A stretch of 50,247 nucleotides of DNA from Candidatus Parcubacteria bacterium (GTDB lineage: Bacteria; Patescibacteriota; Minisyncoccia; Minisyncoccales; PEYH01), in the NCBI GenBank assembly GCA_026395615.1, contig JAPLYH010000051.1, positions 6,318 through 56,564 on the forward strand, read 5' to 3'. Position 1 is the first letter of the stretch. Each line of letters begins with the position of its first letter. Below are positions 13,506 through 33,791 of the stretch, one piece after another. The notes below the pieces were generated by a model. The model saw only the letters and a program-made list of their open reading frames with translations. It ran no database searches and was not told the origin of the DNA. Both the position numbers and the translations under genes were made by a program.

Positions 13506-13538
13506 AAATTACGCGGCCGGGGAGCGTGGGACAGAAAT
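13506..13538 (+). repeat. R element, long variant (copy R1)
   Basis: aaattacgcggccggggagcgtgggacagaaat. It is homologous over about 55 nt to the copy at 33759-33791 on the minus strand. Confidence 0.8.
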
Positions 13539-13556
13539 GGAATTTTATGGTCTAAT
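13528..13556 (+). promoter_or_regulatory. promoter-like -35/-10 pair carried by R1
   Basis: GGGACA, 17 nt, TCTAAT. The same arrangement (GGGACA-17-TATAAT) occurs in the 33759 copy. Confidence 0.35.
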
Positions 13557-13633
13557 ATATCACTCATATATCGAGCAGATATCTTAATACCATAACATAT
13601 CACAACAAGTTTGAGTAAAAACCAGAAATGTTC

Positions 13634-13657
13634 ACTACGATGCCGGGTGGCGTAATT
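13634..13657 (+). repeat. R element core (copy R2)
   Basis: actacgatgccgggtggcgtaatt followed by ttttt. It sits between 15-nt direct repeats aagtttgagtaaaaa at 13607-13621 and 13693-13707. Confidence 0.85.
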
Positions 13658-13696
13658 TTTGGAGATTTTTGAAAGAAAGGATATGGATATAAAAGT

Positions 13697-13725
13697 TTGA
13701 GTAAAAAGCGGAAATATATTAGAAT
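13697..13725 (+). promoter_or_regulatory. proximal sigma70-like promoter of cysS
   Basis: TTGAGT, 17 nt, TAGAAT, 31 nt upstream of the cysS ATG. Confidence 0.45.
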
Positions 13726-13756
13726 AAACTAATAACGAAAACAAATAATAATAAGA

Positions 13757-15157
13757 ATGATTAAAGTATATAATTCCCTAAGCAAAAAAGAAGAGATATT
13801 TAAACCCTTAAAAGATAAAAAGGTTGCTTTTTATGTATGCGGGCCAACTGTTTACGGTCCCGGACATATTGGGCATGCGCGAACATATATTGCCTTTGAT
13901 ATCATCAGAAGATATTTGGAGTATAAGGGCTATGATGTGAGATACGCGATGAATATAACCGATATTCATGATGATATTATCACGGCAGCTCAAATGCAAA
14001 AAACCGATATTTTCACTTTAGGAAATAAGTACACAAAAATGTTTTTACATGACCAAAATAATTTGGGTATTAAAAAGGCAAATTTTTATCCAAGGGTAAC
14101 AGAAAACATAAAAGAGATTATAAAATTCATTCAAGAACTGGAAGAAAAAGGGTTTGCTTACGAAAAAGATGATTCTGTATATTTTGACGTTTCAAAATTC
14201 AAGGACTATGGAAAACTCTCCGGAATTAAAATCAAAAAAGCAAAAACCGGGACAAGAGTAGAAACAGACAAATACGAGAGAAAAGAAGCCATTGATTTTG
14301 TTTTGTGGAAGAAAGCAAAACCAGGCGAACCATTTTGGGAAAGCCCTTGGGGACAAGGCAGGCCAGGCTGGCATATTGAATGCTCGGTAATGATTAAAAA
14401 ACATTTAGGAGAACAAATAGATATCCACGCTGGAGCAATAGATTTATTATTTCCCCATCATGAAAATGAAATCGCCCAAACAGAAGCGATTGCCAAGAAA
14501 AAACCATTTGTAAAATATTGGCTGCATGGCGGACTTTTAATGATAAATGGACAAAAGATGTCCAAGTCGCTTGGCAATTTTATAACCATAGAACAAGTAT
14601 TAGAAAAATGGGATTCAAGAGTTATAAGAATGTTTGTCGCTTCAAGCCATTATCAAAGCAAATTGAATTGGTCGGAAAGAAATCTCTTACAGGCTAAGAA
14701 AAATCTGGAGAAAATAGAAGAATTTATAGAAAAACTCAAAACGCAAAACGTAAAAGGTAAAACAACAACAAACTCAAAACAGATTGAATCCTTGATAAGA
14801 AAATCAAAGAAAGAATTTGAAGTGGCAATGGATGATAATTTTAATACTCCTGAAGCGCTGGCCGTATTGTTTGAAATGATGAAAAGTATAAATCCCCTAC
14901 TTGATAAAAATAAAATTGATAAAAAACAGGCAAAAGATATACTGGAGTTCTTAAAAAATATTGATAAAATTTTTAATTTCATTTTCCCTGGTAAAAAAGA
15001 AGCAATTCCTGAACAAATAAAAGAATTAGTAAAAAAGAGGGAAAAGTCAAGAAAAGATAAACAATGGCAAAAAGCAGATGAGATTAGAAAACAAATTGAA
15101 CAACTGGGGTTTAATATAAAAGATACGGCCAACGGAACGGAAGTGAAAAAGAGATAG
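13757..15157 (+). CDS. cysS: cysteine--tRNA ligase
   Basis: HIGH motif (GPGHIGHARTY), KMSKS, WHIECS zinc site and a class I CysRS length of 466 aa. Confidence 0.95.
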   Translation: MIKVYNSLSKKEEIFKPLKDKKVAFYVCGPTVYGPGHIGHARTYIAFDIIRRYLEYKGYDVRYAMNITDIHDDIITAAQMQKTDIFTLGNKYTKMFLHDQNNLGIKKANFYPRVTENIKEIIKFIQELEEKGFAYEKDDSVYFDVSKFKDYGKLSGIKIKKAKTGTRVETDKYERKEAIDFVLWKKAKPGEPFWESPWGQGRPGWHIECSVMIKKHLGEQIDIHAGAIDLLFPHHENEIAQTEAIAKKKPFVKYWLHGGLLMINGQKMSKSLGNFITIEQVLEKWDSRVIRMFVASSHYQSKLNWSERNLLQAKKNLEKIEEFIEKLKTQNVKGKTTTNSKQIESLIRKSKKEFEVAMDDNFNTPEALAVLFEMMKSINPLLDKNKIDKKQAKDILEFLKNIDKIFNFIFPGKKEAIPEQIKELVKKREKSRKDKQWQKADEIRKQIEQLGFNIKDTANGTEVKKR

Positions 15158-15171
15158 AATTATTATCCACA

Positions 15172-15208
15172 GGGCAAAAATGACCGCGCAAAGCGGTCAT
15201 TTTTGCCC
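15172..15208 (+). terminator. 16-bp perfect hairpin after cysS
   Basis: gggcaaaaatgaccgc-gcaaa-gcggtcatttttgccc. The U tract is embedded in the 3' arm, so it is an atypical intrinsic terminator. Confidence 0.55.
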
Positions 15209-15237
15209 CTCTTGCCAAAAATTGGAATTTGGCTAGA

Positions 15238-16653
15238 ATGGAGATAATGGCTGATTACTCAAAAAACAACCAAACTCTGCCCGATAAAACTCCTCCTCAA
15301 AACATTGAGGCTGAGAAATCTTTGCTCGGTAGCTTAATGATCGATAGAAATGCGATTATAAAAGTCGTGGATTTTTTACAACCACGCGATTTTTATAAAA
15401 ACCAACATCAAACAATATACGAATCAATACACGATCTTTTCGACAGAAATCAAGTAATTGATTTCCTATCTTTATCCTCCCGATTACAAGAAAAAGGCAA
15501 ATTAGAGTCAATTGGCGGAAAATCATATCTTACAGAACTCATCAACTCTGTGCCTAATGCAATGCATGTTTTGGATTATGCAAAAATTGTCCAGAAAAAA
15601 AGAATTTTAAGAGATCTTATCCAAACTTCTTATGAAATCGGCAGCATGGGATTCAATGAAGAAGAAGATATTGACATCTTATTAGACAGAGCAGAAAGTC
15701 AGATATTCAACATCGCCCAACGCTCGATGTCCCAACAATTCATTCCGATTAAAAGCGAATTAGAAGGCGCTTTTGAAAGAATAGATAATCTTTCAAAACA
15801 TAAGGGCACGCCACGAGGAGTGCCGACAGGATTTGTTGACTTGGATAAAATACTTTCCGGCCTTCAAAAATCCGACTTGATTATTCTGGCTGCCCGCCCA
15901 TCAATCGGTAAAAGCGGATTGGCTCTGGATATTGCCCGCCACATTGGAGTAAACGAGAAAAAACCAGTCGGAGTTTTTAGCTTGGAAATGTCTAAAGACC
16001 AAGTAATTGACCGTTTTATTGCCAGTCAATCAAATGTTGACCTTTGGAAATTAAGAACAGGTCATCTTTCCGGAGACGGACCTGATAATGATTTTGAAAG
16101 AATCCAGCACGCTCTTGGAGTATTATCAGAAGCTCCCATATTTATAGATGACACTGCTGGGCTTAATATTCTGCAGATGAGAGCAATGGCGAGAAGATTG
16201 CAAGTTCAACATGGATTATCTCTGTTAATAGTTGATTATCTTCAATTAATGGAACCTCGATCTGCTAATATGCAAATGGTTCAACAAATGACAGAAATAT
16301 CCCGTTCGCTTAAGGGATTGGCAAAAGAATTGGAAGTTCCTGTTCTTGCTCTGTCCCAACTTTCAAGAGCAGTGGAACAAAGAACTCCATCAATACCAAA
16401 ATTATCCGACCTCCGCGAAACAGGAGCTTTGGAACAGGATGCTGATGTTGTTTTATTCATTTACCGCGAAGATAAATACAGACAAGACACTGCCAGAAAA
16501 AATATTGCTGATATCTTGATTGCAAAACACAGAAACGGCCCTGTTGGCAAGGCCGAGTTGTATTTTGACGAACCTCGAGCAAGTTTCCGAAATCTAGAAA
16601 AAAGAGAATTTGAAGATCCGGGAAATATTGAACTGGAAGATATTCTTTCTTAA
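15238..16653 (+). CDS. dnaB: replicative DNA helicase DnaB
   Basis: PQNIEAEKSLLGSLM N-domain, Walker A ARPSIGKSGLAL, IVDYLQLM and SQLSRAVEQR. ATG at 15238 is preferred over the TTG at 15229 used by the track. Confidence 0.9.
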   Translation: MEIMADYSKNNQTLPDKTPPQNIEAEKSLLGSLMIDRNAIIKVVDFLQPRDFYKNQHQTIYESIHDLFDRNQVIDFLSLSSRLQEKGKLESIGGKSYLTELINSVPNAMHVLDYAKIVQKKRILRDLIQTSYEIGSMGFNEEEDIDILLDRAESQIFNIAQRSMSQQFIPIKSELEGAFERIDNLSKHKGTPRGVPTGFVDLDKILSGLQKSDLIILAARPSIGKSGLALDIARHIGVNEKKPVGVFSLEMSKDQVIDRFIASQSNVDLWKLRTGHLSGDGPDNDFERIQHALGVLSEAPIFIDDTAGLNILQMRAMARRLQVQHGLSLLIVDYLQLMEPRSANMQMVQQMTEISRSLKGLAKELEVPVLALSQLSRAVEQRTPSIPKLSDLRETGALEQDADVVLFIYREDKYRQDTARKNIADILIAKHRNGPVGKAELYFDEPRASFRNLEKREFEDPGNIELEDILS

Positions 16654-16661
16654 TCTTCTGT

Positions 16662-16976
16662 CTACACTTCCGGAATCTCTTTGATTTCAACTAAAGTATA
16701 AAACTGGCGATGTCCTTTTGTAAGCTTATATCTCTTCTTCGGGCTATATTTAAAGGCGATAACTTTCTTGCCTTTTTTTGTTTCCAAAACCTTTGCCTGG
16801 ACTGTGGCATTTTTCACAAAAGGAGTGCCAATGCTTAATTTTTTATTTCTTTCCAATAATAAAACCTCATCAAAGATAACTTCTTCGTTATCCTTTTTAT
16901 CTAATTTCTCTATTTTTATTTTATCGCCGGGTTTAACAAGATACTGTTTCCCGCCGGTCTTGATTACTGCCAACAT
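16662..16976 (-). CDS. rplU: 50S ribosomal protein L21
   Basis: MLAVIKTGGKQYLVKPGDKIKIEKL... at 104 aa. Confidence 0.9.
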   Translation of the reverse strand: MLAVIKTGGKQYLVKPGDKIKIEKLDKKDNEEVIFDEVLLLERNKKLSIGTPFVKNATVQAKVLETKKGKKVIAFKYSPKKRYKLTKGHRQFYTLVEIKEIPEV

Positions 16977-17007
16977 ATTTTATTAATCATTAATTATTAA
17001 TCATTTA

Positions 17008-18010
17008 TCATTTATCATTATCTTCAGCTGGTAATTGTTTTTCTTCCGGCGAATTGTCTAATAATCTCTCTACCCTATCGCCGAATAAAGAAAGCCGTTT
17101 TTCCGAATTATCATAAGATGATAAAGCATTTTTTAAGTGGCTTCCTAATTTCCTGAAATCATCCATTATCTTTTTGCCATCTTGCTGGACTTTTGTCAAT
17201 CGTTTTAAGATATCTTGGGTCTTTTTTGTTATTTGAACATCTTTATACCAATGATTCACAGCAGAAAGAGTCAACAAGATATTATTCGGTGAAGCCAAAA
17301 TTATTTTCTTAGAACGGGCATATCTTGCCAAATCCTCTTCCCTCATCATTGTTATTTCATAATATACCGCTTCAGCGGGAATATACATAATCGCCTGGTC
17401 GGTTGTCCCTTCTGATGGCAAAATATATTTTGAAGCAATTTCTTGAATTTTCAGCTTGGTATCTTCTATAAATTTTTTACGAAAGAGCTTTTTATCCTCT
17501 TCGCTCTCCGATTCAACCATTTTTCTGTAATTATCATAGGAAAATTTCGCATCTATCGGAAGAATCCTGCCATTCGGAAGTTTTAAAGCCACATCTACTT
17601 GCTCTCCTGAAGAAAATAAATGCTGCGTTGTATAAAGTTCTTTTGGGAAATACTCATTCAAAATATGTTCCAAACTTTCTTCTCCCCACTCTCCTCTTAA
17701 TTTCGGCGACCTGAATATTTCTTGAAAAGATGAAATACTTTTCATCACTTCCTGAACCTGCTTCATATCTTCGCGAATCTGGACAGTTTCTTTGGTAAAC
17801 GAAGAAATCTGCTGATTCATCGCCTTAGAGGTTCCATCAACACTCCCTCTTATTTCTTTTAATTGCCCAGTCATCAAGTCTGTAATCCGTCTTTCAAGGT
17901 CTCTTATTTTATCACTCTGATTTTCATCAACATCTTTTTTCCAAAAGAATAAGGCCTAATGGTCCGATAATCGCGACTATTAAAAAAAATACTAATAAAA
18001 TATCGCTCAT
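17008..18010 (-). pseudogene. rmuC: DNA recombination protein RmuC, N-terminal anchor separated by a 1-nt frameshift in an A6 run
   Basis: The main ORF carries PKLRGEWGEESLEHIL and the RmuC nuclease core. ATG at 18010 opens MSDILLVFFLIVAIIGPLGLILLEKR, which stops after the run at 17935-17940. Removing one base continues ...LLEKDVDENQSDKIRDLERRITDLMTGQLKE in frame. Confidence 0.7.
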
Positions 18011-18083
18011 ATCTCCACTGATATTAACATTTCAAAACCAAAAAAGCAAGAACCGTTAGATTCTAACATTTTTACAATTTATG

Positions 18084-18155
18084 CGGCCCCGACGAGAGTC
18101 GAACTCGTGTACCATGGTTGAGAACCATGTATCCTAACCACTAGATGACGGGGCC
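18084..18155 (-). tRNA. tRNA-Glu (anticodon CTC)
   Basis: Manual cloverleaf: acceptor GGCCCCG/CGGGGCC, anticodon stem CATGG/CCATG with loop TTCTCAA, T-arm ACGAG-TTCGACT-CTCGT. Confidence 0.85.
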
Positions 18156-18229
18156 AATAAAACTACAATAACACAAAAAAAGACTGGTGGCAAACTGTCT
18201 TTTCATCCTTTTTATTATGATTCTCAACT

Positions 18230-19927
18230 CTATTTTTCCGGGACAACTTGATAATAATCCAAAATGTATTTTGCCAATTTCTGGAAAACAAAAACTGCTG
18301 ATTCACTGGCACTCCTGGTTTTCGGACTATCTAATTTCACGGCTATTACAAACCTTGGAGAAAACGCAGGAGCAAAACCAATAAAGCTCTGCCAGGTCTC
18401 ATCACTATAACCCGCTTTATTTATGCCAAGAGAGGAAAAAGGAATTTGTGAAGTTCCGGTTTTCCCTGCAACATAATACCCAGGAACTTGGGCGTCCTTG
18501 CTATATCCGCTCTCCGTAACTGCGATAAGCATTTTTGTAAGATCTTCTGCTGTTTTAGAAGTGATGATTTGTTTTGCCGTTTTATTCGATTGCAACGGCT
18601 CTTTGCTTCCATTATTTACAATTGCTTCAGCCACATATGGCTGGATTAACTTGCCTTTATTGGCAATTACGCAAAAATCTCTTGCCACTTGCATTAAATT
18701 CATACTAATCCCCTGTCCAAAAGACGCGGTGGCGTAATTAATTTCCCAACCCTTTTTAAATTCCTGATTTTCCGAATAAACCTCTCCCCCTAAATCAATG
18801 CCGGTTTTGTCAAAAACCCCAAATTTTTCCAAATAATCAACAAATGTTTGGTGGCTCAATTGATTTTGAACGAATACTGCCCCGGTATTAATTGATTTTT
18901 CCAAAACTTGCGTCATTGTTGATTCTCCCCAAGTCCTATTATCATAATTAGTAATCACTTTATCCTTAATTACTAATCGCCCAACATCTATATAGGTTGT
19001 TTCTGGCGTAATTTTGCCCTCATTAAGAGCTGCTGCCATAGTCACTGCCTTAAAGGCAGAGCCCGGTTCGTAAAATGTCTGAATCGCGTTGTCTTGGAAT
19101 ACTCCGATTTGATTATTCTGAGCATATTCTTGATATTTATTAGGGTCAAAACCGGGGAAATCCGCTAGAGCTAAAACTTTTCCGGACGATGGTTCAATCA
19201 CGATTATTTGCGCTGATTGAAATTTAAAATCTGTTGAATAATCTTTTAATACTTTTTCTGCAAATGCTTGAATATTTTTATCAATGGTCAAAACTAAATC
19301 TGCCCCCCTTATTGAACCTTCATTATTGCTATCCGTGGATTTGCCAAAAGGACCATAGGATATTTTTTGCCATCCCTCCTGCCCTGCTAACACGTCGTTC
19401 CAATATTCTTCTACCCCATATTGCCCTTCTCCGCTTTGATTTACAAAACCCAACACATCCGAAGCAAGCGCTCCAAACGGATAAAAACGCTTGCGCTCTT
19501 GATCTAAATAAACTCCTTCCATATTTAACTCTTGTATTTTTTGTTTTTCTTCTTCGGAAATATTTCTTTTTACAAGGAAAAAGAGCTTATCGCTGTTACT
19601 ATTAATATTATTTAATAATTCATTTTTATCTACAGACAATGCCGGACTTAACAGCTCTGCCACTCTTTCTTTGTCTTCAATCATTTTTGGAGCCACATAA
19701 CAAAACCAGCTTTCTTCATTAGTAGCTGCGAGAACTATATTATCTTTATCATATAAAAAAATATCCCCTCTTGTTCCGGATATTTGTTGAAAAATCTCTT
19801 GGTGTCCCTTTGCCAGAGCCCTATAAAGCTCGCCGTTCATAACTTGAAGAAAAAATAAACGGGCAATAATAGTTGCTCCAATAAGAAAAATAAAAAAATA
19901 AACAATGTTAATTCTTGGAAATTTCAT
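18230..19927 (-). CDS. ftsI: penicillin-binding transpeptidase (FtsI/PBP2-class)
   Basis: N-terminal TM, SxxK (GSAFK), SxN (SIN) and KTGT motifs. It follows ftsL in the dcw cluster. Confidence 0.85.
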   Translation of the reverse strand: MKFPRINIVYFFIFLIGATIIARLFFLQVMNGELYRALAKGHQEIFQQISGTRGDIFLYDKDNIVLAATNEESWFCYVAPKMIEDKERVAELLSPALSVDKNELLNNINSNSDKLFFLVKRNISEEEKQKIQELNMEGVYLDQERKRFYPFGALASDVLGFVNQSGEGQYGVEEYWNDVLAGQEGWQKISYGPFGKSTDSNNEGSIRGADLVLTIDKNIQAFAEKVLKDYSTDFKFQSAQIIVIEPSSGKVLALADFPGFDPNKYQEYAQNNQIGVFQDNAIQTFYEPGSAFKAVTMAAALNEGKITPETTYIDVGRLVIKDKVITNYDNRTWGESTMTQVLEKSINTGAVFVQNQLSHQTFVDYLEKFGVFDKTGIDLGGEVYSENQEFKKGWEINYATASFGQGISMNLMQVARDFCVIANKGKLIQPYVAEAIVNNGSKEPLQSNKTAKQIITSKTAEDLTKMLIAVTESGYSKDAQVPGYYVAGKTGTSQIPFSSLGINKAGYSDETWQSFIGFAPAFSPRFVIAVKLDSPKTRSASESAVFVFQKLAKYILDYYQVVPEK

Positions 19928-19937
19928 TTTGAGAATT

Positions 19938-20258
19938 TCACTTTGCCAATGCTGTTCTTCCCGCTGCTCTGATATAGTGGACTTTATCTATTCTTTCAAA
20001 ATTTAAATCTTGGGCTACTTTATCAATTTCCGGCATTTCTTTTGCAGATACCAAAACTGCTTCTTCTGCATTGGCCGTCGGAAGTCCGGCTAACTTATTT
20101 TGGACCTCGGAAACCAAAATGCTATTTCGCGACAAAGATTGCATTTGAAGAACCCATATCGCAAACAACCCTATAATTGAAAAGATAGATAAACCCCAAA
20201 TAATCTTAAAATTCATTTTGAACGAATTTCTTGAAATTTTTTGAATCCTGACTGTCAT
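19938..20258 (-). CDS. small bitopic cell-division protein, FtsL-like by position
   Basis: 106 aa with a single TM (IIWGLSIFSIIGLFAIWVL), located between rsmH and ftsI. Confidence 0.5.
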   Translation of the reverse strand: MTVRIQKISRNSFKMNFKIIWGLSIFSIIGLFAIWVLQMQSLSRNSILVSEVQNKLAGLPTANAEEAVLVSAKEMPEIDKVAQDLNFERIDKVHYIRAAGRTALAK

Positions 20259-21160
20259 ATAATTTTTCTGGCTATTCTTAATTTTGCCGACCTTGAGCGA
20301 GGATTATTACTGATTTCTTCAAAACCCGGAACTATAGGTTTTTTGGTAATGATTTCAAAAATGTTTATTTCCTGACATCTCTTGAAAAATCTTTTCACTT
20401 CCCCGTCTTCTAAAGAATGAAATGATATCACTGCGATTCTCCCATCCTTTCCTAAAACTTCTGCTGCTTGAATCAATCCTTTTTTTACGTTCTCAATCTC
20501 TGAATTAACGGCTATCCTTAATGCCTGGAATGTTTTGGTTGCAGGATGAAGTTTTTTTCTTTGAAAACGCCCGGGAAGAGCTGACCAAATAATTTCTACT
20601 AAATCAAATGTCGTACGAATCGGTTTTTCTTGTCTTTTCTCAATTATTTTTTTAGCAATCGCTCTGGAAAACTTTTCCTCGCCGTAGTCCTTTAAAATCT
20701 TTTCTATATCTTCTTCTGTATAACTATTCACTATTTCAAGCGCAGTCAAAGAATTAATCTGGGGATTATATCTCATATCCAGCGGTTCATCTTCTTTGAA
20801 AGAGAATCCCCTTCCGCTTTCCTCAAAATGCCAGCTGGACAGGCCTAAGTCCATCACAATTCCGTTTACTGGACCGAAATTTTTCTCTGCAATTATATTT
20901 TTAAGGTTTATATAAGAATCATTCACTAAAATCAATCTGTTCTGGATCTTGGATTTTGAATTCTCATCTCCGCCTTCCTGTTGAAACTTATTGTAAAGTT
21001 CCGGATCCGCTTCTATGGCCAACACTTTCCCGTTCGGTTCTATCGCATCTAATAAAGCGAGCGTATGCCCTCCTTGCCCGAAAGTACAATCAATAAAATT
21101 CTCGTTTGGTTTGGGATTAAGATATTCTATGATTTCTTTTTTAAGTACTGGTATGTGCAT
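20255..21160 (-). CDS. rsmH: 16S rRNA (cytosine1402-N4)-methyltransferase
   Basis: MHIPVLKKEIIEYL...DCTFGQGGHT...DLGLSS...SFHSLEDGEVK is the RsmH/MraW signature. Confidence 0.9.
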   Translation of the reverse strand: MHIPVLKKEIIEYLNPKPNENFIDCTFGQGGHTLALLDAIEPNGKVLAIEADPELYNKFQQEGGDENSKSKIQNRLILVNDSYINLKNIIAEKNFGPVNGIVMDLGLSSWHFEESGRGFSFKEDEPLDMRYNPQINSLTALEIVNSYTEEDIEKILKDYGEEKFSRAIAKKIIEKRQEKPIRTTFDLVEIIWSALPGRFQRKKLHPATKTFQALRIAVNSEIENVKKGLIQAAEVLGKDGRIAVISFHSLEDGEVKRFFKRCQEINIFEIITKKPIVPGFEEISNNPRSRSAKLRIARKII

Positions 21161-21180
21161 CTTTTTCTCCTGTGTTTATT

Positions 21181-21612: not shown

Positions 21613-21661
21613 GATAATAAATGGGAAAAATGAGATATTATGTATAATTTTCAGTTTTTGA

Positions 21662-21722
21662 GTTATCCCCAGTTCCTGAAAGTTATCCCCACCTTTCTCC
21701 ACAACATCTTCTTTATACCCCA
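21662..21722 (-). promoter_or_regulatory. three TGGGG(A/T)ATAA direct repeats upstream of mraZ (candidate MraZ operator)
   Basis: Minus strand reads TGGGGATAAC twice, 20 nt apart, and GTGGGGTATAAA a further 31 nt upstream, 50-110 nt before the mraZ ATG. Confidence 0.45.
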
Positions 21723-21779
21723 CAATTAACCACCAGTCAACCACTCCCCTGTGGAAAACTTTTTCGCAGATTCTCGCTA

Positions 21780-25610: not shown

Positions 25611-25647
25611 AAAAAACAAAAGCGGACATCGTCCGCGTTTGTTTTTT
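25611..25647 (-). terminator. hairpin terminator
   Basis: aaaaaacaaaa-gcggac-atc-gtccgc-gtttgtttttt. Confidence 0.6.
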
Positions 25648-25677
25648 AAATGGATTAACTACCATTATTTCTATGAA

Positions 25678-26817
25678 TTACGCTATGTGATTAAACTCAT
25701 TAGTACTCGTCCCACCTCCCATCATCCATATCTGGAAAAACGGCATTAATAATTCTATAAGATTATCAGATTTTTCCGGCGCACTTATTTCTTGTGTCTG
25801 GTTAAACTCTGAAAAGGCCATTTCAAATCCCAAAGCCATTCCTCCGGTTTGAGTATCATCGGCGCTAAGAGCATAAACATTCTTATCTGTCTTAATTTTA
25901 TAAATATATTTGTCTTTTGTTCCTATCCATATTTCAAACTCTATCTCCCCCGCTTTATCAAAAAAGTTATCTAATTGAGCAACACTCTGATCTTCATCTG
26001 CTGACAATGGTTCCGAGATCAATGAACCAAGTTTAGTACGAACAATATCACGAACTCCTAATATAAATTTCTTAGCGTTTTCTTTATCTACGGTTAATAA
26101 AAAATGATATGCCTGATTATTATTTATCTTTTCATTGGGTAATTTTGCCTTTGTTTTGAATACCGGATATTTTTCAAAAAGTCCCAATATTTCATTCGTA
26201 AGTTCTTGACTTGCTTGCTCATCCATCGTCATTGCCTCTAGACTAAGACCTGCTTCCTTAGGGTCAAATCTAAGCCACTTTCCTATGAATGGATCTAAAT
26301 TGATTCCAGTTGCAGCTAATTGAATACGAAGGACCAAGGGAACAGTAGTGATATTGAGATAAAATACTTTATCTACTACTCTAATCTCTCCCCCAAAAAG
26401 TACTTCCAATCCCTTTTGAACAATAGAAAGATCAACTAAAATCTTTGACTTGGGATTCTCGGGATCTGAATTGTTCTCAAATATATCAAAAACCATCTTT
26501 CCTTCCGCTTTTTCTCCTGAGCTGCTCGGAACATCAAAGTTAACGGTAAATTTAGTCCTTACACTCTCCAGCTTAGACATATTCTCCAGCGCTTCTTTTA
26601 TAATTTTATTAGGAGAAGGCCTTAATGGATTCCAAACAGGGTCCCATATTCCTGTAGCAAAAACAACGCCGATACCTATAATAATCACTATTAAACCAAT
26701 AGCTATCCCTATAAGCACTTTTTTCTTGCTTTTCGGTTTTACTGATGGCTTTTGAGGAAACTCACTAACCTGACTTATTGTCCCTCCCATAGCTGAATTT
26801 TGATTTTGCTCTTCCAT
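25678..26817 (-). CDS. hypothetical membrane-anchored protein
   Basis: 379 aa with one TM (LIGIAIGLIVIIIGIGVVFA) after a short cytoplasmic head. No family recognised. Confidence 0.6.
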   Translation of the reverse strand: MEEQNQNSAMGGTISQVSEFPQKPSVKPKSKKKVLIGIAIGLIVIIIGIGVVFATGIWDPVWNPLRPSPNKIIKEALENMSKLESVRTKFTVNFDVPSSSGEKAEGKMVFDIFENNSDPENPKSKILVDLSIVQKGLEVLFGGEIRVVDKVFYLNITTVPLVLRIQLAATGINLDPFIGKWLRFDPKEAGLSLEAMTMDEQASQELTNEILGLFEKYPVFKTKAKLPNEKINNNQAYHFLLTVDKENAKKFILGVRDIVRTKLGSLISEPLSADEDQSVAQLDNFFDKAGEIEFEIWIGTKDKYIYKIKTDKNVYALSADDTQTGGMALGFEMAFSEFNQTQEISAPEKSDNLIELLMPFFQIWMMGGGTSTNEFNHIA

Positions 26818-26854
26818 AATATTTAATAATTATTGATTAATAATTATTGATTAA

Positions 26855-29429
26855 TTAATCTAATATCTTAATTTTAAATTTCTTAGAATCTATTTGAATC
26901 CTGTCCCCTTTTTTAACTTCATCTTTCAACAGCGCTTCTGCTAAAACATTTTCCACATTATCTTGAATCACTCTCTTCAAATTTCTAGCTCCAAAAGTTA
27001 TATCATACCCAAGCTCAACAATTTTTTCTTTGAGCTCTTCTGTAATTATAAACTCAATATTCTTTTCTATCAACCCTTGTTGAATACTCTTAAGCATCAA
27101 TTGGGCAATATCTAAAAGATTTTCCTTGGTTAATGGCTTGAATAAAACCACTGCGTCAAATCTGTTTATAAACTCCGGACGAAATGTTTTTTCGTCAAAA
27201 AGTCTATTCAATAATTTTTCTTTTACAACGGAAAAATCCAAATTATTCCTAAGAGCATCTAAGATGACCTCATATCCAGCGTTGGAAGTTGCAATAATAA
27301 TAGTATTCTTAAAATCTACTTTTCTGCCCAAACCATCAGTGATATGGCCATCATCCAATACCTGCAAAAATAGATTCAAAATATTTGGATGGGCTTTCTC
27401 AATTTCATCCAACAAAACCAAGGAAAAAGGGTCTTCCCTGACAGGTGTTGTCAATAACCCTTCCTCTCCGGAAGAACCCATCAGGCGAGGAATATCTTCC
27501 TGGGACTGAAACTCCGACATATCAAGACGAATCATTTTTTCCTCTGAACCGAAATATATTTCAGCCAAAGCTTTTGATGTTTCTGTTTTTCCGACACCAG
27601 TAGGTCCTAAAAATAGAAATCCGCCCATAGGGCCTTTCCTTTCTTTTAATTTAGCTCTGGCACGACGCAAAGAAGTAGAAACTTCTCTCACCGCCTCTTC
27701 TTGATTTATGATTCTCTGATGAATAAGGTCCTCTAAATTAAGCAAAATCTCTTTTTCTTTTGTTTCAATTTTCCCAACAGGAATCTCTGTTTTGCGCGCA
27801 ACTATCCTATCTATATCTTCGGGTAAAACCCATTTACCTCTAACATTATCTGTTTTTATCATCGCTTCTTCTAAAACATTGATCGCTTTCTTGGGAAATG
27901 GCACATCAGCAATATATCTGCCAGTTAATTCAACAACTTGTCCTATGGCGGGATAAGTTATAAATCTATTGTATTTAGCTTCCAACCTGGGAGCTAATCT
28001 TTGCAAAATACGAATTGTTTCTTGCGGACTAGGTTCTTTAACTTCCACTTTTGAAAATAAATTTAAAACTGTCGGATTCTCTTCAATTTGTTTATGAAGA
28101 CCGGTATAACTCGCGATAGCTATAATTTTAAATTCAGCAAATTTTAGATAAGTAGCAAGAATTCCAGTTATATCAATTTTACCTGGGCCTATTTCGCCTC
28201 CGACAAAATTATGAAAATCGTCAATAACCAATATGACATTTTTTGCATTTATAACCTCTTTAAAAATTTTATCCAAAGTATCTTCAACTTGGTCCATGTT
28301 CTGCGTCTGGGCAAGCAACTGGGGAATTTGTAATTCTAAAACTCTATTGTAATTAACCGCTAAATAACTCTGACCCTTATTGCTCTTTATTAACTGCTAA
28401 ATAACTCTGACCCTTATTGCTCTTTATAGCTACGGCCTTAATAATATTTTCTATCCCTACTCCCGGCTCCCCGACCAAAAGAACATTATTCACTTCCGGG
28501 CTTGATAAAATTCTTTCAACCTGCTCTATTTCTTTTTCGTATCCAATAACGGTTTGCATTCCCTCGCTCAAAACTAATTGATTATAATCAATGGAATATT
28601 CATCTAAAGTAATTGTGTAGCTACTAGACCAACTCCTGCCTATACTCCCCTTTCGGCTTAAATTATCATAATCCCAAAATCTTTTCTTTTGTTTTTTTAT
28701 TTCCTCTCCCTCCTCCCACCACAGCACGGAGTTTCTGACATCGTCCGGCCTTAAATCCGCATCTAATAAAAATGCTCCCACTACTGGTTCATTTTTAGCT
28801 AAAGCCAAAAACATATCTCCTGGTTCAATATATTTATGTTTTTTAGCTTGAGATATTTCTAAAGCATCTTTAATCGCTTGCTCAAATTTTAAAGAATATA
28901 TACCCCGGCTAAATGCGTCTTGGACTTTTTGAACGGGTAAATTTTCTTCTAATTTGTGTTCTAATGACTTTATATCTAATAATAGGCGTAAAAGAATAAA
29001 ATTTAACTTGGGATTTTCTTTTAAAAGAAAATAGAGAAAGGCAGTTGCGCCTATCGGGAAAATATTTTTTCTTTTTGAAAATCTGATTGTGCTATCAAGA
29101 GCTCTTGCCGTATCTATGCTTAAAAATTCCGCTAAATTTACAACTGGCGTCATTTCTGGTACATCCGGATAAAAAAGCTTATTTTTGACAAAACTGACTA
29201 TTAAAAAACAAACAATACTAATTCCAAAGAATACCAAACCAAATCCCAATAAGAAATTGTATTCATTACTAGGCCCTGTTCCTAAGCTGCCGAATATGAA
29301 AAGTAGAACAAAACAAATTGAAACAATTAAAAAAACAATTTTAAACAACGATATTGCTGAAATAGCGAGCCCGCTTGAAATCCTCGTTGCCTTGAATATT
29401 CCTGTTTTTTGAAAATCAAAATTAAACAT
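26855..29429 (-). pseudogene. membrane-anchored Clp/Hsp100-type double-AAA+ protein, interrupted by a 37-bp tandem duplication
   Basis: The upstream ORF has 2 TM helices, Clp-N-like repeats and a degenerate Walker A, GEPGVGIENII. The downstream ORF has ILVIDDFH, an intact NBD2 (GPTGVGKTETSKALA, LVLLDEIEKAH) and sensor FRPEFINRFD. Removing one 37-bp copy joins ...SYLAVNYNRVLELQIPQLLAQTQNMDQVE... in frame. Confidence 0.75.
28354..28427. repeat. 37-bp tandem duplication (2 copies, 1 mismatch)
   Basis: taaccgctaaataactctgacccttattgctctttat at 28354-28390 and taactgctaa... at 28391-28427. Confidence 0.95.
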
Positions 29430-29812
29430 CAGAATAAAAATTTAATGCCAAAAGCAAAAAGGGCGATTATTATAACTGGCAAAAAAATCCAGCTTAAAAA
29501 TACAATCGCTCCGATTAAAAAAATAAAAACCTCAAATATCAAACCAACAAGAATAAGAACACTCCTTATAATCGCTCCCAATACTCTGGAAAAACTATTG
29601 GAAATAAATGTCTCGGCATATCTGGAAACGCTAAATCCCCTGCCATAATCCCATTGATAACTATGCCAAGGCGCTAAAAATGTTCTCAAAAGAGCGCCAA
29701 CTGAAAAGAAGCTTAAATAAAAGCGGAGGTAATTTTTCCACGCCTTGCCGAGTTCTTTGGGCACATCGTGAAAGTGCCAAATAAAATATTGAATAATAAC
29801 ATTTTGGCTCAT
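29429..29812 (-). CDS. small polytopic membrane protein
   Basis: 127 aa with 3-4 hydrophobic helices. Its stop overlaps the start of the Clp-like gene. Confidence 0.6.
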   Translation of the reverse strand: MSQNVIIQYFIWHFHDVPKELGKAWKNYLRFYLSFFSVGALLRTFLAPWHSYQWDYGRGFSVSRYAETFISNSFSRVLGAIIRSVLILVGLIFEVFIFLIGAIVFLSWIFLPVIIIALFAFGIKFLF

Positions 29813-29836
29813 TGGATAATTTTACCAAAATTATCC

Positions 29837-29870
29837 AAAAACAACAAAGCCACAGACCGTAGACCTGTGG
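29837..29870 (-). terminator. intrinsic terminator closing the island C transcript
   Basis: Minus strand reads ccacag-gtctacggt-ctgtgg followed by ctttgttgttttt. Confidence 0.6.
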
Positions 29871-30272
29871 ATTAATATTTTGATGCTTATTTAAAAAGGG
29901 AAAGCGAGAGCTTCTTCTAGCGCGAAACTTCCCCCTTGACCACTTTTACGGCTTGTGCAGCTAACGCGTGGTCAACTAGTATCTCGCTAGAATCAGCTCT
30001 CGCTTGTGGACCTCTGAATCCTGCAATTGGGTTTGTGCGGACCCACCAAGATCCTACTCTATCCTAGAAAAGGACAGAGGGGGCTATTCACAGTCACTAG
30101 AACGAGCATCAAACTCATCACTGAGTAGCTCTACTAGCCGTGTAAACCCCGGATTGATCGCGACAGCAACCTGTTTAGTACGAGAGGTACGCCCTGGGGT
30201 GCATGGGGATGGCACCCACAGTTCTCGCCCTTCTTAAACTTGGACAATTCGCCATTGCCCACCTCCTCCTTA
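29871..30272 (-). ncRNA. candidate structured RNA or dual-function transcript (island C), unassigned
   Basis: GC-rich block between a predicted promoter and terminator. It has a 100-nt hairpin (29904-29922 pairing 29985-30003) enclosing the helix 29936-29943/29968-29975. Only a 26-codon ORF lies at its 5' end. Confidence 0.4.
30175..30255 (-). CDS. possible 26-aa basic peptide at the 5' end of island C
   Basis: ATG lies 5-9 nt after AAGGAGGAGGTG. The peptide is MANCPSLRRARTVGAIPMHPRAYLSY. The only support is the ribosome-binding site. Confidence 0.3.
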   Translation of the reverse strand: MANCPSLRRARTVGAIPMHPRAYLSY

Positions 30273-30278
30273 ATTCAC

Positions 30279-30307
30279 ATTGTACACCCAACCTTGAAAA
30301 ATGTCAA
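30279..30307 (-). promoter_or_regulatory. near-consensus sigma70 promoter of island C
   Basis: Minus strand reads TTGACA (30307-30302), 17 nt, TACAAT (30284-30279). Confidence 0.6.
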
Positions 30308-30309
30308 GC

Positions 30310-30339
30310 AAAAAACCGCTTTCGAAAAAGCGATTTTTT
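30310..30339 (-). terminator. hairpin terminator after tRNA-Val
   Basis: cgcttt-cgaa-aaagcg flanked by A and T runs. It abuts the -35 box of island C. Confidence 0.6.
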
Positions 30340-30370
30340 GTGCCTGCACTGCGTAGCCTTAGCGAAGCAG

Positions 30371-30444
30371 TGGGCGTAGATGGACTCGAACCATCGACCT
30401 CTATCGTGTGAGGATAGCGCTCTAACCAACTGAGCCATACGCCC
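30371..30444 (-). tRNA. tRNA-Val (anticodon CAC)
   Basis: Manual cloverleaf: acceptor GGGCGTA/TACGCCC, anticodon stem CTATC/GATAG with loop CTCACAC, T-arm GATGG-TTCGAGT-CCATC. Confidence 0.9.
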
Positions 30445-30497
30445 CTTTGTTTATCCTACTACTTTAAACTTTGCCAGTAAAGATATAGAATAAGGCT

Positions 30498-31277
30498 ATG
30501 CAAGTGTTTGATTACCATATTAATCCGAAATCAAAAAAGGGTTTAATATTTAAAACCTTTTATTTCCAACCGGAAAATAGCAATGAAAAACCATTAGGTA
30601 ATTTATGCATTGTCGGAGAATTTTCCGATTCTCTTTCAAAAGATAAAAAAGTTTTAGAGGATTTAAGTAATATTATTAAAGAAGAATTTTTTTCTGACCC
30701 TCATAAAACGCCAGCAGAAGGGTTAAAATCAGCGCTTAAAAAAGGAAACCAATTTTTAGAAGAATTATCTCTTCAGGGAAACGTCAGATGGCTTGGGAAT
30801 TTAAGTATCGCCGTTATTGCTATTAAAGATTTTGATATTCATTTTTCCAAGGCAGGAAATGTTAAATTACTTCTTTTGAGAAGCGGAGAATATCATGATA
30901 TCGGAGAAAATTTAGAATTCCAGAAACAATCTCCTGATAAATCAACCCAAATATTCTCAAATATTGCTTCTGGAAACTTAACAGATAGAGATAGGATTTT
31001 TATTCTCACTCAAGATATATTTGAATTTTTTCATTTGCGCTTAGCAAGCAGGATATCAGATCTTCCAATCGCCACTCCGAAAATAATCTCTGCTTTCCTA
31101 AAGGAAAATAAAAACGAGATGAAAGAATATTCCGGAGCAATGCTAGTAATAACAATCAATAGAAAAGGAATTAAAAAACATTGGTTTCGTTTTTTAAAAA
31201 ATCCTTTAGGCAAAAAAATAGCTTTAATCGTTTCTTTGATTATTATTTTACTTTTGTCTTGCTGGATATTTAGATAG
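30498..31277 (+). CDS. hypothetical protein with C-terminal TM; weak, degenerate PPM/SpoIIE-like pattern
   Basis: 259 aa. ...FSKAGNVKLLLLRSGEYHDIG... and ...DRDRIFILTQDIFEFF loosely recall PP2C-type folds. C-terminal helix is IALIVSLIIILLLSCWIF. Confidence 0.5.
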   Translation: MQVFDYHINPKSKKGLIFKTFYFQPENSNEKPLGNLCIVGEFSDSLSKDKKVLEDLSNIIKEEFFSDPHKTPAEGLKSALKKGNQFLEELSLQGNVRWLGNLSIAVIAIKDFDIHFSKAGNVKLLLLRSGEYHDIGENLEFQKQSPDKSTQIFSNIASGNLTDRDRIFILTQDIFEFFHLRLASRISDLPIATPKIISAFLKENKNEMKEYSGAMLVITINRKGIKKHWFRFLKNPLGKKIALIVSLIIILLLSCWIFR

Positions 31278-31296
31278 TTTGCTCCTCAAAGAAATA

Positions 31297-31321
31297 CAAA
31301 AAACCCTTTCAAGGGTTTTTT
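31297..31321. terminator. bidirectional hairpin terminator between convergent genes
   Basis: aaaaaaccctt-tc-aagggtttttt. Confidence 0.65.
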
Positions 31322-31337
31322 GCTTCTTTTAAATTTC

Positions 31338-31766
31338 TTACTTTAGTTCTATTGTCGCTCCCGCTGCTTCAAATTTCTTTTTAACATCTTCTGCTTCTTC
31401 TTTCTTGGCTTTTTCTTTTATAACCTGAGGTTCAGCAGCTGCTGCATCAACTAAATCTTTAGCTTCCTTTAATCCTTTAGCTGTTGCATCTCTTACTGCC
31501 TTGATAACATCAATCTTTTTATCCCCTACTGTTTTCAAAATAACATCATACTCTGATTTTTCTTCTACTCCTGCTGCAGCATTTGCTGCTGGAGCTGCCA
31601 TCATAGCTACTGGCGCAGCTGCGCTGACTCCAAACTTCTTTTCAAGCACTTTGACCAGTTCCGCTAAATCAACGACTTTCATATCTTCAATTTCCTTGAC
31701 AATTTTAGCGAATTTTTCTGGAACTACTATTTCTTCTTTTTTATCCTCTTTAATATCTTCTGCCAT
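31338..31766 (-). CDS. rplL: 50S ribosomal protein L7/L12
   Basis: Ala-rich hinge and a C-terminal domain [24 protein letters not shown]...[14 protein letters not shown]. Confidence 0.95.
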
Positions 31767-31804
31767 AGTTTTATAAAATTAATTATATTTAATATTCTTT
31801 ATTA

Positions 31805-32332
31805 TTATTTTTCTGCAATTGCCCCAAGGGCATAAACCAGACCTTTAATATTTTCTCTCTGCACAGTCACAAACCCTGAAATCGGCGCAGAAAGCGTTCC
31901 TACTAATTTTGCGAAAAGTTCTTGTTTTGACGGTAATTGGGCTAATACGATAACATCCTCTGCTGACATGAATTCGCTTTTTATTCCATCAGAAATATAT
32001 CCGCCAATAAGCTTTAACTTGTTCTGTTCTTGTGAAAACTGATAAGCGGTTTTTACTGGAGCTATTTCATCCTCAAACCCAAAAATTAATGCTACTTCAT
32101 TTCCTAATTTTTCTTTAGGAAGATCAATATTTTTTTCCTTAAAAGCAAGCTGAGCCAATGTTTTCTTAACTACTATAAACTTTGCTCCTGCTTGTTTTAA
32201 TTTTTTTCTTAAATTAACCAAATCGCCGAATTTTAAACCAGAAAAATTGACAAAAACTATTGATTTTTGTTTTTCAAGGTTTTCTTTTACGGTTTCTATT
32301 ATTTGTTTCTTTTTTTGTTTTGTTAATGGCAT
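31805..32332 (-). CDS. rplJ: 50S ribosomal protein L10
   Basis: 175 aa lying immediately upstream of rplL, with L10-like FVNFSGLKFGDLVNLRKKLKQAGAKFIVVKKTL. Confidence 0.9.
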   Translation of the reverse strand: MPLTKQKKKQIIETVKENLEKQKSIVFVNFSGLKFGDLVNLRKKLKQAGAKFIVVKKTLAQLAFKEKNIDLPKEKLGNEVALIFGFEDEIAPVKTAYQFSQEQNKLKLIGGYISDGIKSEFMSAEDVIVLAQLPSKQELFAKLVGTLSAPISGFVTVQRENIKGLVYALGAIAEK

Positions 32333-32468
32333 ATGTTTAAAAAAATAAATTGTCTCCGGAATTACCGCAGACCAAATAATTTAAATGACAACTGTCATTA
32401 ACTATCTACCTCGATGGGATTTATCCGCAAGCGGACCCATTGTCTACGGCTTCACTTTTTTAATTACG
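32333..32468 (-). promoter_or_regulatory. structured 5' leader of rplJ (possible L10-leader-type autoregulatory element)
   Basis: About 135 nt between the predicted TSS and the ATG carry three hairpins: atggg-tccgcttgcgga-taaa-cccat, aatgaca-gt-tgtcatt and gtctgcgg-taat-tccggagac. The family assignment is not verifiable by eye. Confidence 0.3.
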
Positions 32469-32473
32469 ATATC

Positions 32474-32501
32474 AGTATATATTTTTAAAAAATCTTGTCA
32501 A
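32474..32501 (-). promoter_or_regulatory. sigma70-like promoter of rplJ-rplL
   Basis: Minus strand reads TTGACA (32501-32496), 16 nt, TATACT (32479-32474). Confidence 0.55.
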
Positions 32502-32516
32502 GTCCATTGGAGCCCC

Positions 32517-32541
32517 ATTACGATGCCGGGTGGCGTAATTT
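32517..32541 (+). repeat. R element core (copy R3), left boundary of island D
   Basis: attacgatgccgggtggcgtaattt is identical over 25 nt to 33157-33181. Confidence 0.9.
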
Positions 32542-32554
32542 ATATAATTTATAT

Positions 32555-32599
32555 TTTAAAAGAAGTAGCGGGGACGCACACCGTGTGCACATCCCCGCT
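32555..32599 (-). terminator. intrinsic terminator of island D
   Basis: Minus strand reads agcgggga-tgt-gcaca-cgg-tgtgc-g-tccccgct followed by acttctttt. Confidence 0.65.
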
Positions 32600-32662
32600 C
32601 ATGTTCCGCCGCTCAATTACTCTAGTAGTTTCGCGAACTACTTCGTCAAATCTCGCAGTACG

Positions 32663-32872
32663 CTACGCCTTAGCCGTACAACGAGCCTCGGCCTTGATGC
32701 CGCAGCAACGAGCGACAGAATCCCCGAGATCACAATGCGAGACCTGCCGAACGCAACCGCTTCGCAGTTGAGCCTTAGCAGCTCGCATCTGATCGATCAA
32801 ACCACGTACACAACCCGGACCTGCTCGGATATTCATCGCCGATCTACCTCCTGAAAAAAGCTGCCGGATCAT
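32663..32872 (-). CDS. small Cys-rich protein (69 aa), island D gene 2
   Basis: GGGAGG lies 6 nt before the ATG. The product MIRQLFSGGRSAMNIRAGPGCVRGLIDQMRAAKAQLRSGCVRQVSHCDLGDSVARCCGIKAEARCTAKA has 7 Cys. First codon positions are G-rich, which is coding-like. Confidence 0.4.
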   Translation of the reverse strand: MIRQLFSGGRSAMNIRAGPGCVRGLIDQMRAAKAQLRSGCVRQVSHCDLGDSVARCCGIKAEARCTAKA

Positions 32873-32896
32873 AGTGCGCCTCCCATCGACGAGGGT

Positions 32897-33067
32897 CTAG
32901 GCCACCAGTCCAGCAACACAGCTCGTCGTTCGGGTCGTCTGAGTGGAAACGCCTCGGCTCATAGTGATCTTCATCACTGCCTTGTCGCTTCCAGCTCCAG
33001 CTTCACGTCCTGGCGTTGTCCGCATCGCAAACAACACAGGACTCGCTCGCGAGCCGTAGTTTCGCAT
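32897..33067 (-). CDS. possible 56-aa protein, island D gene 1
   Basis: GAAGGAGG (33075-33082) lies 7 nt before the ATG at 33067. The product is MRNYGSRASPVLFAMRTTPGREAGAGSDKAVMKITMSRGVSTQTTRTTSCVAGLVA. About 70 percent of first codon positions are purines. It is below the track's length cutoff. Confidence 0.3.
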   Translation of the reverse strand: MRNYGSRASPVLFAMRTTPGREAGAGSDKAVMKITMSRGVSTQTTRTTSCVAGLVA

Positions 33068-33109
33068 TATCTATCCTCCTTCGCCATAGAGAATCTCTTG
33101 GCTATTTTT

Positions 33110-33138
33110 ATAATACAAAAAATGACCCTTTGGGTCAA
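33110..33138 (-). promoter_or_regulatory. sigma70-like promoter of island D
   Basis: Minus strand reads TTGACC (33138-33133), 17 nt, TATTAT (33115-33110). Confidence 0.55.
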
Positions 33139-33155
33139 TATTTGTTCGATTTGTG

Positions 33156-33181
33156 AATTACGATGCCGGGTGGCGTAATTT
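33156..33181 (+). repeat. R element core (copy R4), right boundary of island D
   Basis: aattacgatgccgggtggcgtaattt starts one base after the DJ-1-family stop codon. Confidence 0.9.
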
Positions 33182-33709
33182 TTAAAGAGTGTGTAATTTT
33201 TCAATAATAGCCCGACTGAATTCATTAACAGCGGATGGGCCGTTGGCAGTAATAATGTTTCCATCACAAACTACTGGTTTATCAACATATTCCGCTCCAT
33301 TTTCTTGCAAAACTTTAATTGGTTTTTTATCCATTACACTTGACCAGATTGTCGCCTTCCTCCCTTGTAGAACACCCGCTGTTGCCAATATTGCCGGGGC
33401 AATACAAATTGCTGCCAATAATTTTTCCTGTTTAACCATTTCTTGAATAATATTTAAAACTTTCTCATCATCAATATATTTATAAGCTCCTGGGCCACCG
33501 ACAAACATTATTGCATCAAATTCAGATATATTTATTTCATCAAGCACAATATCTATATCTGCTTCTCCCCCGCTTCCGCCAATCGCTGTGCCTTTTTGTG
33601 AACTAACTGTACTCACTTCAAAACCAGCATTTATAAAAGCTTGTTTCGGAATAAAATATTCCTCATCCCGAAAATTTCTAAAAGCTATTATTATCGCAAT
33701 TTTCATCAC
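33182..33709 (-). CDS. DJ-1/PfpI family protein
   Basis: 175 aa with nucleophile-elbow Cys in LLAAICIAPAILATAG, plus DAIMFVGGPG. Confidence 0.85.
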   Translation of the reverse strand: MMKIAIIIAFRNFRDEEYFIPKQAFINAGFEVSTVSSQKGTAIGGSGGEADIDIVLDEINISEFDAIMFVGGPGAYKYIDDEKVLNIIQEMVKQEKLLAAICIAPAILATAGVLQGRKATIWSSVMDKKPIKVLQENGAEYVDKPVVCDGNIITANGPSAVNEFSRAIIEKLHTL

Positions 33710-33740
33710 AAAAAACTTCTAATTAATACGAGATTAAAAT

Positions 33741-33769
33741 ATTATAACACAAAATCTAATTTCTGTCCC
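33741..33769 (-). promoter_or_regulatory. promoter-like pair carried by R5, upstream of the DJ-1-family gene
   Basis: Minus strand reads GGGACA (33769-33764), 17 nt, TATAAT (33746-33741), 32 nt before the ATG. Confidence 0.5.
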
Positions 33770-33791
33770 ACGCCACCCGGCATCGTAATTT
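33759..33791 (-). repeat. R element, long variant (copy R5)
   Basis: Minus strand reads aaattacgatgccgggtggcgtgggacagaaat. Truncated left arms aaactacgatgg (33793-33804) and aaaattacgcgg (33825-33836) lie beside it. Confidence 0.85.

Follow-up and report, generated by a model that had tools for sequence, protein, structure and literature searches.

The window analysed here is a 50,247-nucleotide stretch of the genome of a Candidatus Parcubacteria bacterium (contig C3 of assembly G000, positions 6318-56564; the assembly comprises 587 kb at 36% GC in 54 contigs and is 98.9% complete). Our subject is the R element, a palindrome with AATTACG and CGTAATT arms around an 11-nt GC-rich centre, and its link to a Y1/HUH transposase gene that lies elsewhere in the same genome. 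In the window R copies are found among the genes cysS and those for DJ-1/PfpI, L10, YceG and GtrA. The five copies listed by a first-pass annotation lie where it had placed them, give or take one base, and all are extragenic. The 23-nt R core gave 3 matches in the window against 0.00 expected in shuffles. The features of the window that bear on the element are as follows.

13506..13527 (+), R hairpin with the variant centre CGGCCGGGGAG (AAATTACG-CGGCCGGGGAG-CGT), its right arm swapped for a promoter-like module
13528..13556 (+), promoter-like module GGGACA-17-TCTAAT pointing toward cysS, with a weak -10; not flagged by the promoter scan
13607..13621 (+), left copy of the 15-nt direct repeat AAGTTTGAGTAAAAA, exact
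13632..13662 (+), hairpin-2-type copy with a CTCAC-like lead, CTACG arm and T-run, equivalent to positions 68-97 of the genome-wide doublet described below
13693..13707 (+), right copy of the 15-nt direct repeat, within the native box TTTGAGTAAAAAGCGG upstream of cysS that is present in 5/5 species
32516..32540 (+), single R hairpin with left arm CATTACG, between the rplJ promoter and the terminator-bearing end of island D
32554..33138 (-), island D, with predicted promoter 33138-33110 and terminator hairpin 32599-32567; bracketed by two R hairpins, itself outside the repeat family
33156..33180 (+), single R hairpin identical to the consensus, immediately 3' of the DJ-1 stop codon and upstream, by 17 nt, of the -35 box of island D
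33741..33769 (-), promoter-like module GGGACA-17-TATAAT with TG extension, pointing toward the DJ-1/PfpI gene; from the promoter scan
33770..33791 (-), R hairpin, inverted, its right arm swapped for the promoter-like module
33794..33836 (-), two truncated hairpin arms (CATCGTAG.. and CGCGTAATTTT, at ~33794-33803 and ~33826-33836) beside the 33770 copy

A longer version of about 55 nt, reported earlier as common to the copies at 13506 and 33759, is borne out by ~81% identity over 53 nt (counted on the alignment of the versions at 13506 and 33770), and the 15-mer GCGTGGGACAGAAAT, exact in both, has exactly 2 occurrences, 13524-13538 (+) and 33759-33773 (-), against 0.02 expected. Of the two -35/-10-like pairs described within these versions, the one on the DJ-1 side (33769-33741 on the minus strand, with TG) scores 10/12 and was flagged in the promoter scan, whereas the one on the cysS side is weaker and was not flagged. 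The truncated arms beside the inverted copy were also found again, as was the bracketing of island D by two copies, which share one orientation and set the core 14-17 nt before the -35 box of rplJ (32501) and that of island D (33138). An Rfam search over the window hairpins and island D returned nothing for either and matched only tRNAs and the L10 leader.

The core of the hairpin-2-type copy spans 13633-13657 (+) with left arm CACTACG, and the match of 13632-13662 to positions 68-97 of the genome-wide doublet identifies it as the right part of a truncated doublet. The window thus contains single hairpins and doublet fragments, and no full doublet. The 15-nt repeats that flank this copy are exact, as first noted, and because the right one is a native conserved box the duplication did take place; as a single case that is no family trait, it was rejected as a classical target duplication. 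It is the sole flanking duplication noticed when doublet flanks were compared by alignment. In each of the five species of the genus, the box TTTGAGTAAAAAGCGGAAA (13693-13712 and orthologous sites) stands close 5' of cysS.

Across the 587 kb the hairpin occurs in ~48 copies, 0 of them within credible genes, so it is not confined to the loci of the window. The top 25 16-mers of the genome are all R-derived, with up to 32 copies, and 51 of the 68 16-mers with at least 5 copies are R-related, the listed remainder resembling simple tandem repeats. Hairpin positions 8-9 and 17-19 covary (AT/GG, CC/GG, CG/CG, AG/CT), which indicates that the stem is under constraint. The first-pass annotation described single hairpins only, but genome-wide the unit is a conserved doublet of ~118 nt, seen in alignments in ~20 copies (for example L042:12-130) and composed, in order, of hairpin 1, a 40-nt spacer, hairpin 2 with its CTACG left arm, five T and the box TT(A/T)TCCACAGG (TTWTCCACAGG). 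The two hairpins are 65 or 67 nt apart. Hairpin 1 has its centre in direct orientation in about two thirds of the doublets and flipped in six (about one third). Folded as RNA, the doublet consensus is predicted to form a long-range pairing of its outer arms (-19 kcal/mol, z -1.9), with little covariation beyond the two hairpins. The doublet has unlike ends (AATTACG.. and ..CCACAGG) and flanks without conservation in the alignment, and so does not show the terminal inverted repeats and fixed-length target duplication at each copy that define a miniature inverted-repeat transposable element (MITE) such as the Correia element.

The ends of contigs C12, C17, C32 and C35 of G000 fall inside R doublets; the repeat family therefore accounts for part of the assembly breaks, and R copies are probably under-counted in this genome. 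The tail box matches the DnaA-box consensus TTWTCCACA, of which 15 of the 44 genome sites are within R doublets, as are 7 of the 15 perfect TTATCCACA sites; these boxes would confound the prediction of origins and may be of consequence for DnaA.

The first-pass annotation had proposed, among other roles, a small mobile or recombinogenic unit, and a cognate Y1 tyrosine transposase gene flanked by the element, found elsewhere in the genome, supports this role. A Pfam Y1_Tnp search of G000 gave one gene only, C5:3954-4709 (-), outside the window. Full doublets lie ~55 nt upstream of its start and ~70 nt past its stop, both oriented with the gene, and full doublets also stand on either side of the gene in the four sister species (5/5 species of the genus). 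The protein scores 25.9 bits against Pfam Y1_Tnp (cut-off 23), and among 38 homologues H86, F87, H88, Y145 and N149 are invariant and P150 is nearly so. Its AlphaFold model has a pLDDT of 86.7, and a fold search of the PDB gave as best match 4ER8, a complex of the E. coli REP-associated transposase with a REP (repetitive extragenic palindromic) hairpin (E 1.4e-5, target TM 0.60), followed by ISDra2 and IS608 TnpA (2XM3, 2A6M). A sequence search of the PDB with the protein missed the E. coli enzyme and the profile gave a marginal match to ISDra2 only; the fold search was required for the 4ER8 match. In G000 the gene is interrupted by 41 N (C5:~4150-4190) between duplicated 15-nt edges GTTTAATTTTTTAGA. 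Read across this gap it encodes a 236-aa protein collinear with the intact orthologue P0001 of G003, and scaffolding probably produced this gap, so that a gene that is intact looks broken.

The gene is single-copy and vertically inherited. High-scoring Y1 orthologues share their chromosomal locus and a downstream membrane-protein gene in genera g1, g2, g6 and g9. The gene upstream is clpB in G000, and also in L060 and L061, two loci on metagenome contigs. Every Y1 orthologue or paralogue examined in the family carries its own hairpin on both flanks, for example TGCAACGAGGACGGGCCTCGTTGCA in g2 and g6 and CAATAGGCCGGGTCTATTG in g9, while paralogues have very different palindromes; the box TTATCCACAGG directly adjoins the hairpin in g2 and g6. 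Genomes of the window's genus hold 26-49 hairpins, and those of other genera 30 and 16 (g2), 16 (one g6) and 14 (one g7), against 0-4 per genome with reversed-pattern controls. A class-wide search for the ACGAG..CTCGT core matched in 1 of 150 other genomes. Hairpin sequences are lineage-specific, which explains this nearly empty result, and the distribution was instead traced through the protein. More than 527 Y1 relatives were found in a species-representative genome collection, in many candidate phyla that include Harrison-, Nomura-, Adler-, Kaiser-, Yonath-, Uhr-, Davies- and Beckwithbacteria. In 61 of the 73 Patescibacteria loci with enough flank, both flanks have in common a word, mostly palindromic, of 14 nt or more (median 21), and none of 73 control pairings of flanks from different loci shared one. 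The Y1 genes of G005 (L067) and G009 (L068) contain an in-frame copy of their own hairpin ~197 nt into the gene, read as the peptide ..LQRGPSSLQNY.. in a low-confidence loop of the model. G019 may retain a remnant of such an in-frame hairpin.

Taken together, R elements are best explained as REP-type repeats that belong with a single-copy, vertically inherited Y1/HUH transposase of the REP-associated tyrosine transposase (RAYT) kind, that is, as a system of REP/REPIN-RAYT type, and we put the probability of this explanation at about 0.77. It shares with known REP/REPIN-RAYT systems the Y1 fold with HUH and Tyr, single-copy inheritance, flanking repeats on both sides of the gene and over-represented extragenic 16-mers; it departs from them in the 5' tag and in the NCBIfam equivalog score.

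Several observations weigh against this assignment. The protein reaches 33-35 bits against NCBIfam REP_Tyr_transpos, below the equivalog cut-off of 80, and is therefore a distant relative and no equivalog. Classical REPs carry a 5' GTAG/CGTC tag at the foot of the palindrome; this tag is not in its usual position here, where the arms are TTACG/CGTAA and GTAG occurs only in the reverse-strand arm of hairpin 2. The main variant in G000 (ATG..TGG) forms a weak fold, with -4.6 kcal/mol for DNA and -6.3 for RNA. Y1 transposition does not normally leave a duplication such as the 15-nt one around the 13633 copy, which is atypical in this respect. We infer that the Y1 gene of G000 is intact from the duplicated edges of its gap and from the G003 orthologue. 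Within-population insertion or deletion at the window locus was not seen in three independent DNA runs. The strict co-orientation of doublets, discussed below, equally fits selection of hairpin and T-run as a terminator.

Under a REP/REPIN-RAYT-type system the transposase would recognise hairpins that fold in single-stranded DNA, most likely that of the replication fork, and HUH-bound metal together with Tyr145 would cut and rejoin the DNA. Doublets would in this way be copied or moved to extragenic sites, often into or beside existing hairpins. Settled copies would be tolerated or reused: a hairpin with its T-run could terminate transcription or insulate, and the GGGACA-17-TATAAT derivative could drive it as a promoter. 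The direct repeats so created could act as break points for the gain and loss of GC-rich units such as island D.

Among the closest known systems are the E. coli REP/BIME elements and TnpA_REP (RayT). They have in common with R a short extragenic multi-copy palindrome, a single-copy Y1/HUH gene flanked by its own repeats and a similar copy density of ~80 hairpins per Mb, and the structure of TnpA_REP, 4ER8, is the best fold match. The two proteins share 12% identity, the one described here being 236 aa long with a long C-terminal helical extension, and the system differs further in having no 5' GTAG in the usual place and an ultra-small Patescibacteria genome as host. The Pseudomonas REPIN-RAYT systems (PMC3116915, PMC5581495) resemble it in their doublets, in gene-flanking 16-mers that are the most abundant in the genome, in a vertically inherited single-copy gene and in lineage-specific repeat variants. 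In contrast to Pseudomonas REPINs, the two hairpins here are each self-complementary, are 65-67 nt from one another, with a 40-nt spacer and a tail box that are both conserved, have a hairpin 1 centre that is mostly direct, and form small populations (26-49 hairpins). An in-frame REP insertion inside the transposase gene is typical of TnpA_Y1 subclass 2.4 (Quentin et al. 2018, PMC6006769), which the family resembles in the NH[IFV]H- and YIxxNP-type motifs and in the in-frame REP insert of G005 and G009; the likeness is one of motifs and insert, and an FQ motif replaces WQ. IS200/IS605 elements (IS608, ISDra2) share the fold, the catalytic motifs, gene-flanking hairpins on one strand and the likely single-strand route, but here the gene is single-copy and fixed in position, and it is the repeats that have multiplied and not the gene.

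Several readings compete with the REP/REPIN-RAYT assignment. One holds that R elements are ordinary intrinsic, partly bidirectional terminators or insulators that have been homogenised by gene conversion, the adjacency to the Y1 gene being incidental. The hairpin stem does have an A-run before it and a T-run after it, the scan raised terminator-like flags at 13640, 32523 and 33163, the CC and AGG..CCT variants reach about -15 kcal/mol when folded as RNA, and doublets between co-directional genes are all oriented with those genes, with none between truly convergent genes. This co-orientation also fits strand-specific insertion during replication, which is known for IS608 and ISDra2. A terminator function sits poorly with the R copies in divergent promoter regions (13506/13633, C29b, C37a, C39b), with the copies at 32516 and 33156, which are oriented against the local genes, and with the weakness of the main variant. 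The RNA contigs over island D stop at 32554, where the unit has its own strong terminator (32599-32567), short of the R hairpin at 32516. Homogenised terminators would moreover leave unexplained the 40-nt spacer, the tail box, the half-arm debris described below and the cognate hairpins at 61 of 73 homologues, and we regard this explanation as improbable. A hairpin terminator, proposed in the first-pass annotation, is a possible secondary role of R copies.

The portable promoter that had also been proposed applies to a sub-module only. Genome-wide, the promoter-like module is present in four copies, in which the right arm of the hairpin gives way to GGGACA, a 17-nt spacer with TG, and TATAAT; they stand 5' of cysS, 5' of DJ-1, 5' of a C54 gene that, from reading by eye, is probably trpS, and beside a doublet on C39. 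Judged from its sequence, this hairpin-plus-module derivative is possibly a promoter, and the remaining copies of the family do not share the module.

Equally improbable is the view that the doublets are MITE-like or PATE-like deletion derivatives of an insertion sequence (IS) of IS200/IS605 type that is still autonomous and moves itself too. The fold and HUH/Tyr chemistry of the Y1 protein would suit such an element, as would the direct-orientation hairpins on both sides of the gene, which recall left and right IS ends. The several transposase copies at varying loci that characterise IS200/IS605 elements were not found, however: each genome has one copy, its position is conserved in four genera, there is no second copy in G000, and among the open reading frames of the G000 locus no tnpB-like partner was seen.

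That the palindrome, the TTWTCCACA box or both are sites for a host protein (a dimeric regulator, or DnaA) and spread by that function has still less to recommend it. The arms are perfectly symmetric, the core precedes two -35 boxes by 14-17 nt, the doublets hold the 15 of 44 boxes counted above, and other genera also keep a box beside the hairpin. A candidate regulator was not found, and the earlier idea of a shared operator is unsupported; the distance to downstream starts varies from 26 to ~300 nt, and the hairpin sequence follows the lineage of the Y1 protein and no regulon. Least probable is a multi-copy small RNA gene, for which one could cite the 118-nt conservation, the terminal hairpin with T-run and the co-orientation with genes, since the left edge has no conserved promoter, covariation is scant outside the hairpins, Rfam had no match in the window and RNA-run depth was 0 at 33144-33277 and 1.6 at 32474-32607, a stretch that holds no full doublet.

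Turnover of R elements is seen between species of the genus. The spacer 5' of cysS contains one hairpin in G001 and G002, unrelated hairpins in G003 and G004, and two R copies in G000. The rplJ/DJ-1 spacer contains a doublet in G002 and a partial doublet in G003, and in each of G000, G001 and G004 a different GC-rich unit plus R elements. Upstream of DJ-1 there is a full doublet in G001, G003 and G004, and the hairpin with promoter-like module in G000. When 19 G003 hairpin loci were mapped to G000, both flanks fell on one G000 contig for 13, of which 9 are occupied in both genomes, with hairpin number differing in 4 of these 9; the doublet G003:C51:254 and the single hairpin G003:C42:4996 have no counterpart in G000. 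Occupancy, which the first-pass annotation had suggested comparing between strains, therefore differs between sister species, and within the population no variation was seen at the window locus in the three DNA runs.

A joint 32547->33159 (run X8) that looks like a 611-nt deletion has just 26 nt on one side and is read as cross-mapping of another locus, its 36 letters being the spacer of the doublet G000:C5:3803-3896. Loose read ends at 32541, 33139 and 33770 come from C16, C29 and C39 and are no strain variants, and a G003 'hairpin' at L079:5452 is inside a gene and is no R element.

Fifteen orphan half-arms were counted no more than 45 nt from a full hairpin, against 1.3 expected (about 10-fold), and tandem half-arms end after ..TACGATG, at the loop edge. 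This debris is consistent with recurrent cutting and rejoining of the hairpin, or with slippage there. At G000:C16:345-525 and G000:C54:3780-3830 left half-arms stand three in a row (CTCACTACGATG x3; AAATTACGATG x3) and right arms are duplicated, all breaking at the loop edge.

To date REP/REPIN-RAYT work has concerned mainly Proteobacteria, with some Cyanobacteria and Bacteroidetes. A literature search of incomplete coverage found nothing on RAYT, REPIN or REP in Patescibacteria, Parcubacteria, Saccharibacteria or the candidate phyla radiation (CPR), and the main text of Quentin et al. 2018 (PMC6006769), when searched for the names Parcubacteria, Patescibacteria, Microgenomates and candidate phyla, gave none of them. 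The present system would widen the known host range of REP/RAYT-type systems to a 0.6-Mb Patescibacteria genome and, through most of the 73 loci, to many candidate phyla, and shows that streamlined genomes keep such repeats; in small genomes with 26-49 copies each copy is traceable. For annotation, it accounts for contig breaks at repeats, many 'transposase' calls, false DnaA-box matches and variable intergenic spacers. A broader proposal, which we advance tentatively and consider doubtful as a whole, is that an old, vertical, Patescibacteria-wide clade of domesticated Y1 proteins has each member co-evolving with its own hairpin, and that in this family the doublet has become a modular source of terminators and promoters, bears a DnaA-box-like motif and flags the places at which small, GC-rich, expressed units of the island D type come and go. 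If so, a partnership of repeat and transposase would shape both gene regulation and genome flux in bacteria whose genomes are among the smallest known.

Island D itself is expressed. Contigs of a lake metatranscriptome run continuously over 32554-33078, with zero depth in the adjacent DJ-1 gene, and this coverage fits the promoter at 33138-33110 and the terminator at 32599-32567. G002 and G003 have no GC-rich unit at the island D site, and the units of G001 and G004 are unrelated to it. A paralogue with 77% identity lies at G000:C29:17480-18130, with the same palindromic promoter TGACCCAAAGGGTCA and a doublet ~110 nt upstream of that promoter. Counted on the map, about 14 of the 20 doublet loci have a GC-rich block (300-700 nt with 50% GC or more) no further than a few hundred nt away. 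Since the island D site varies among species and doublets stand by GC-rich blocks, R elements may mark the spacers at which such units enter or leave. Their movement may be brought about by the enzyme or by recombination between 25-nt direct repeats, both being candidate routes. The doublets adjacent to GC-rich blocks are on contigs C5, C10, C16, C19, C29, C32, C37, C45 and C51.

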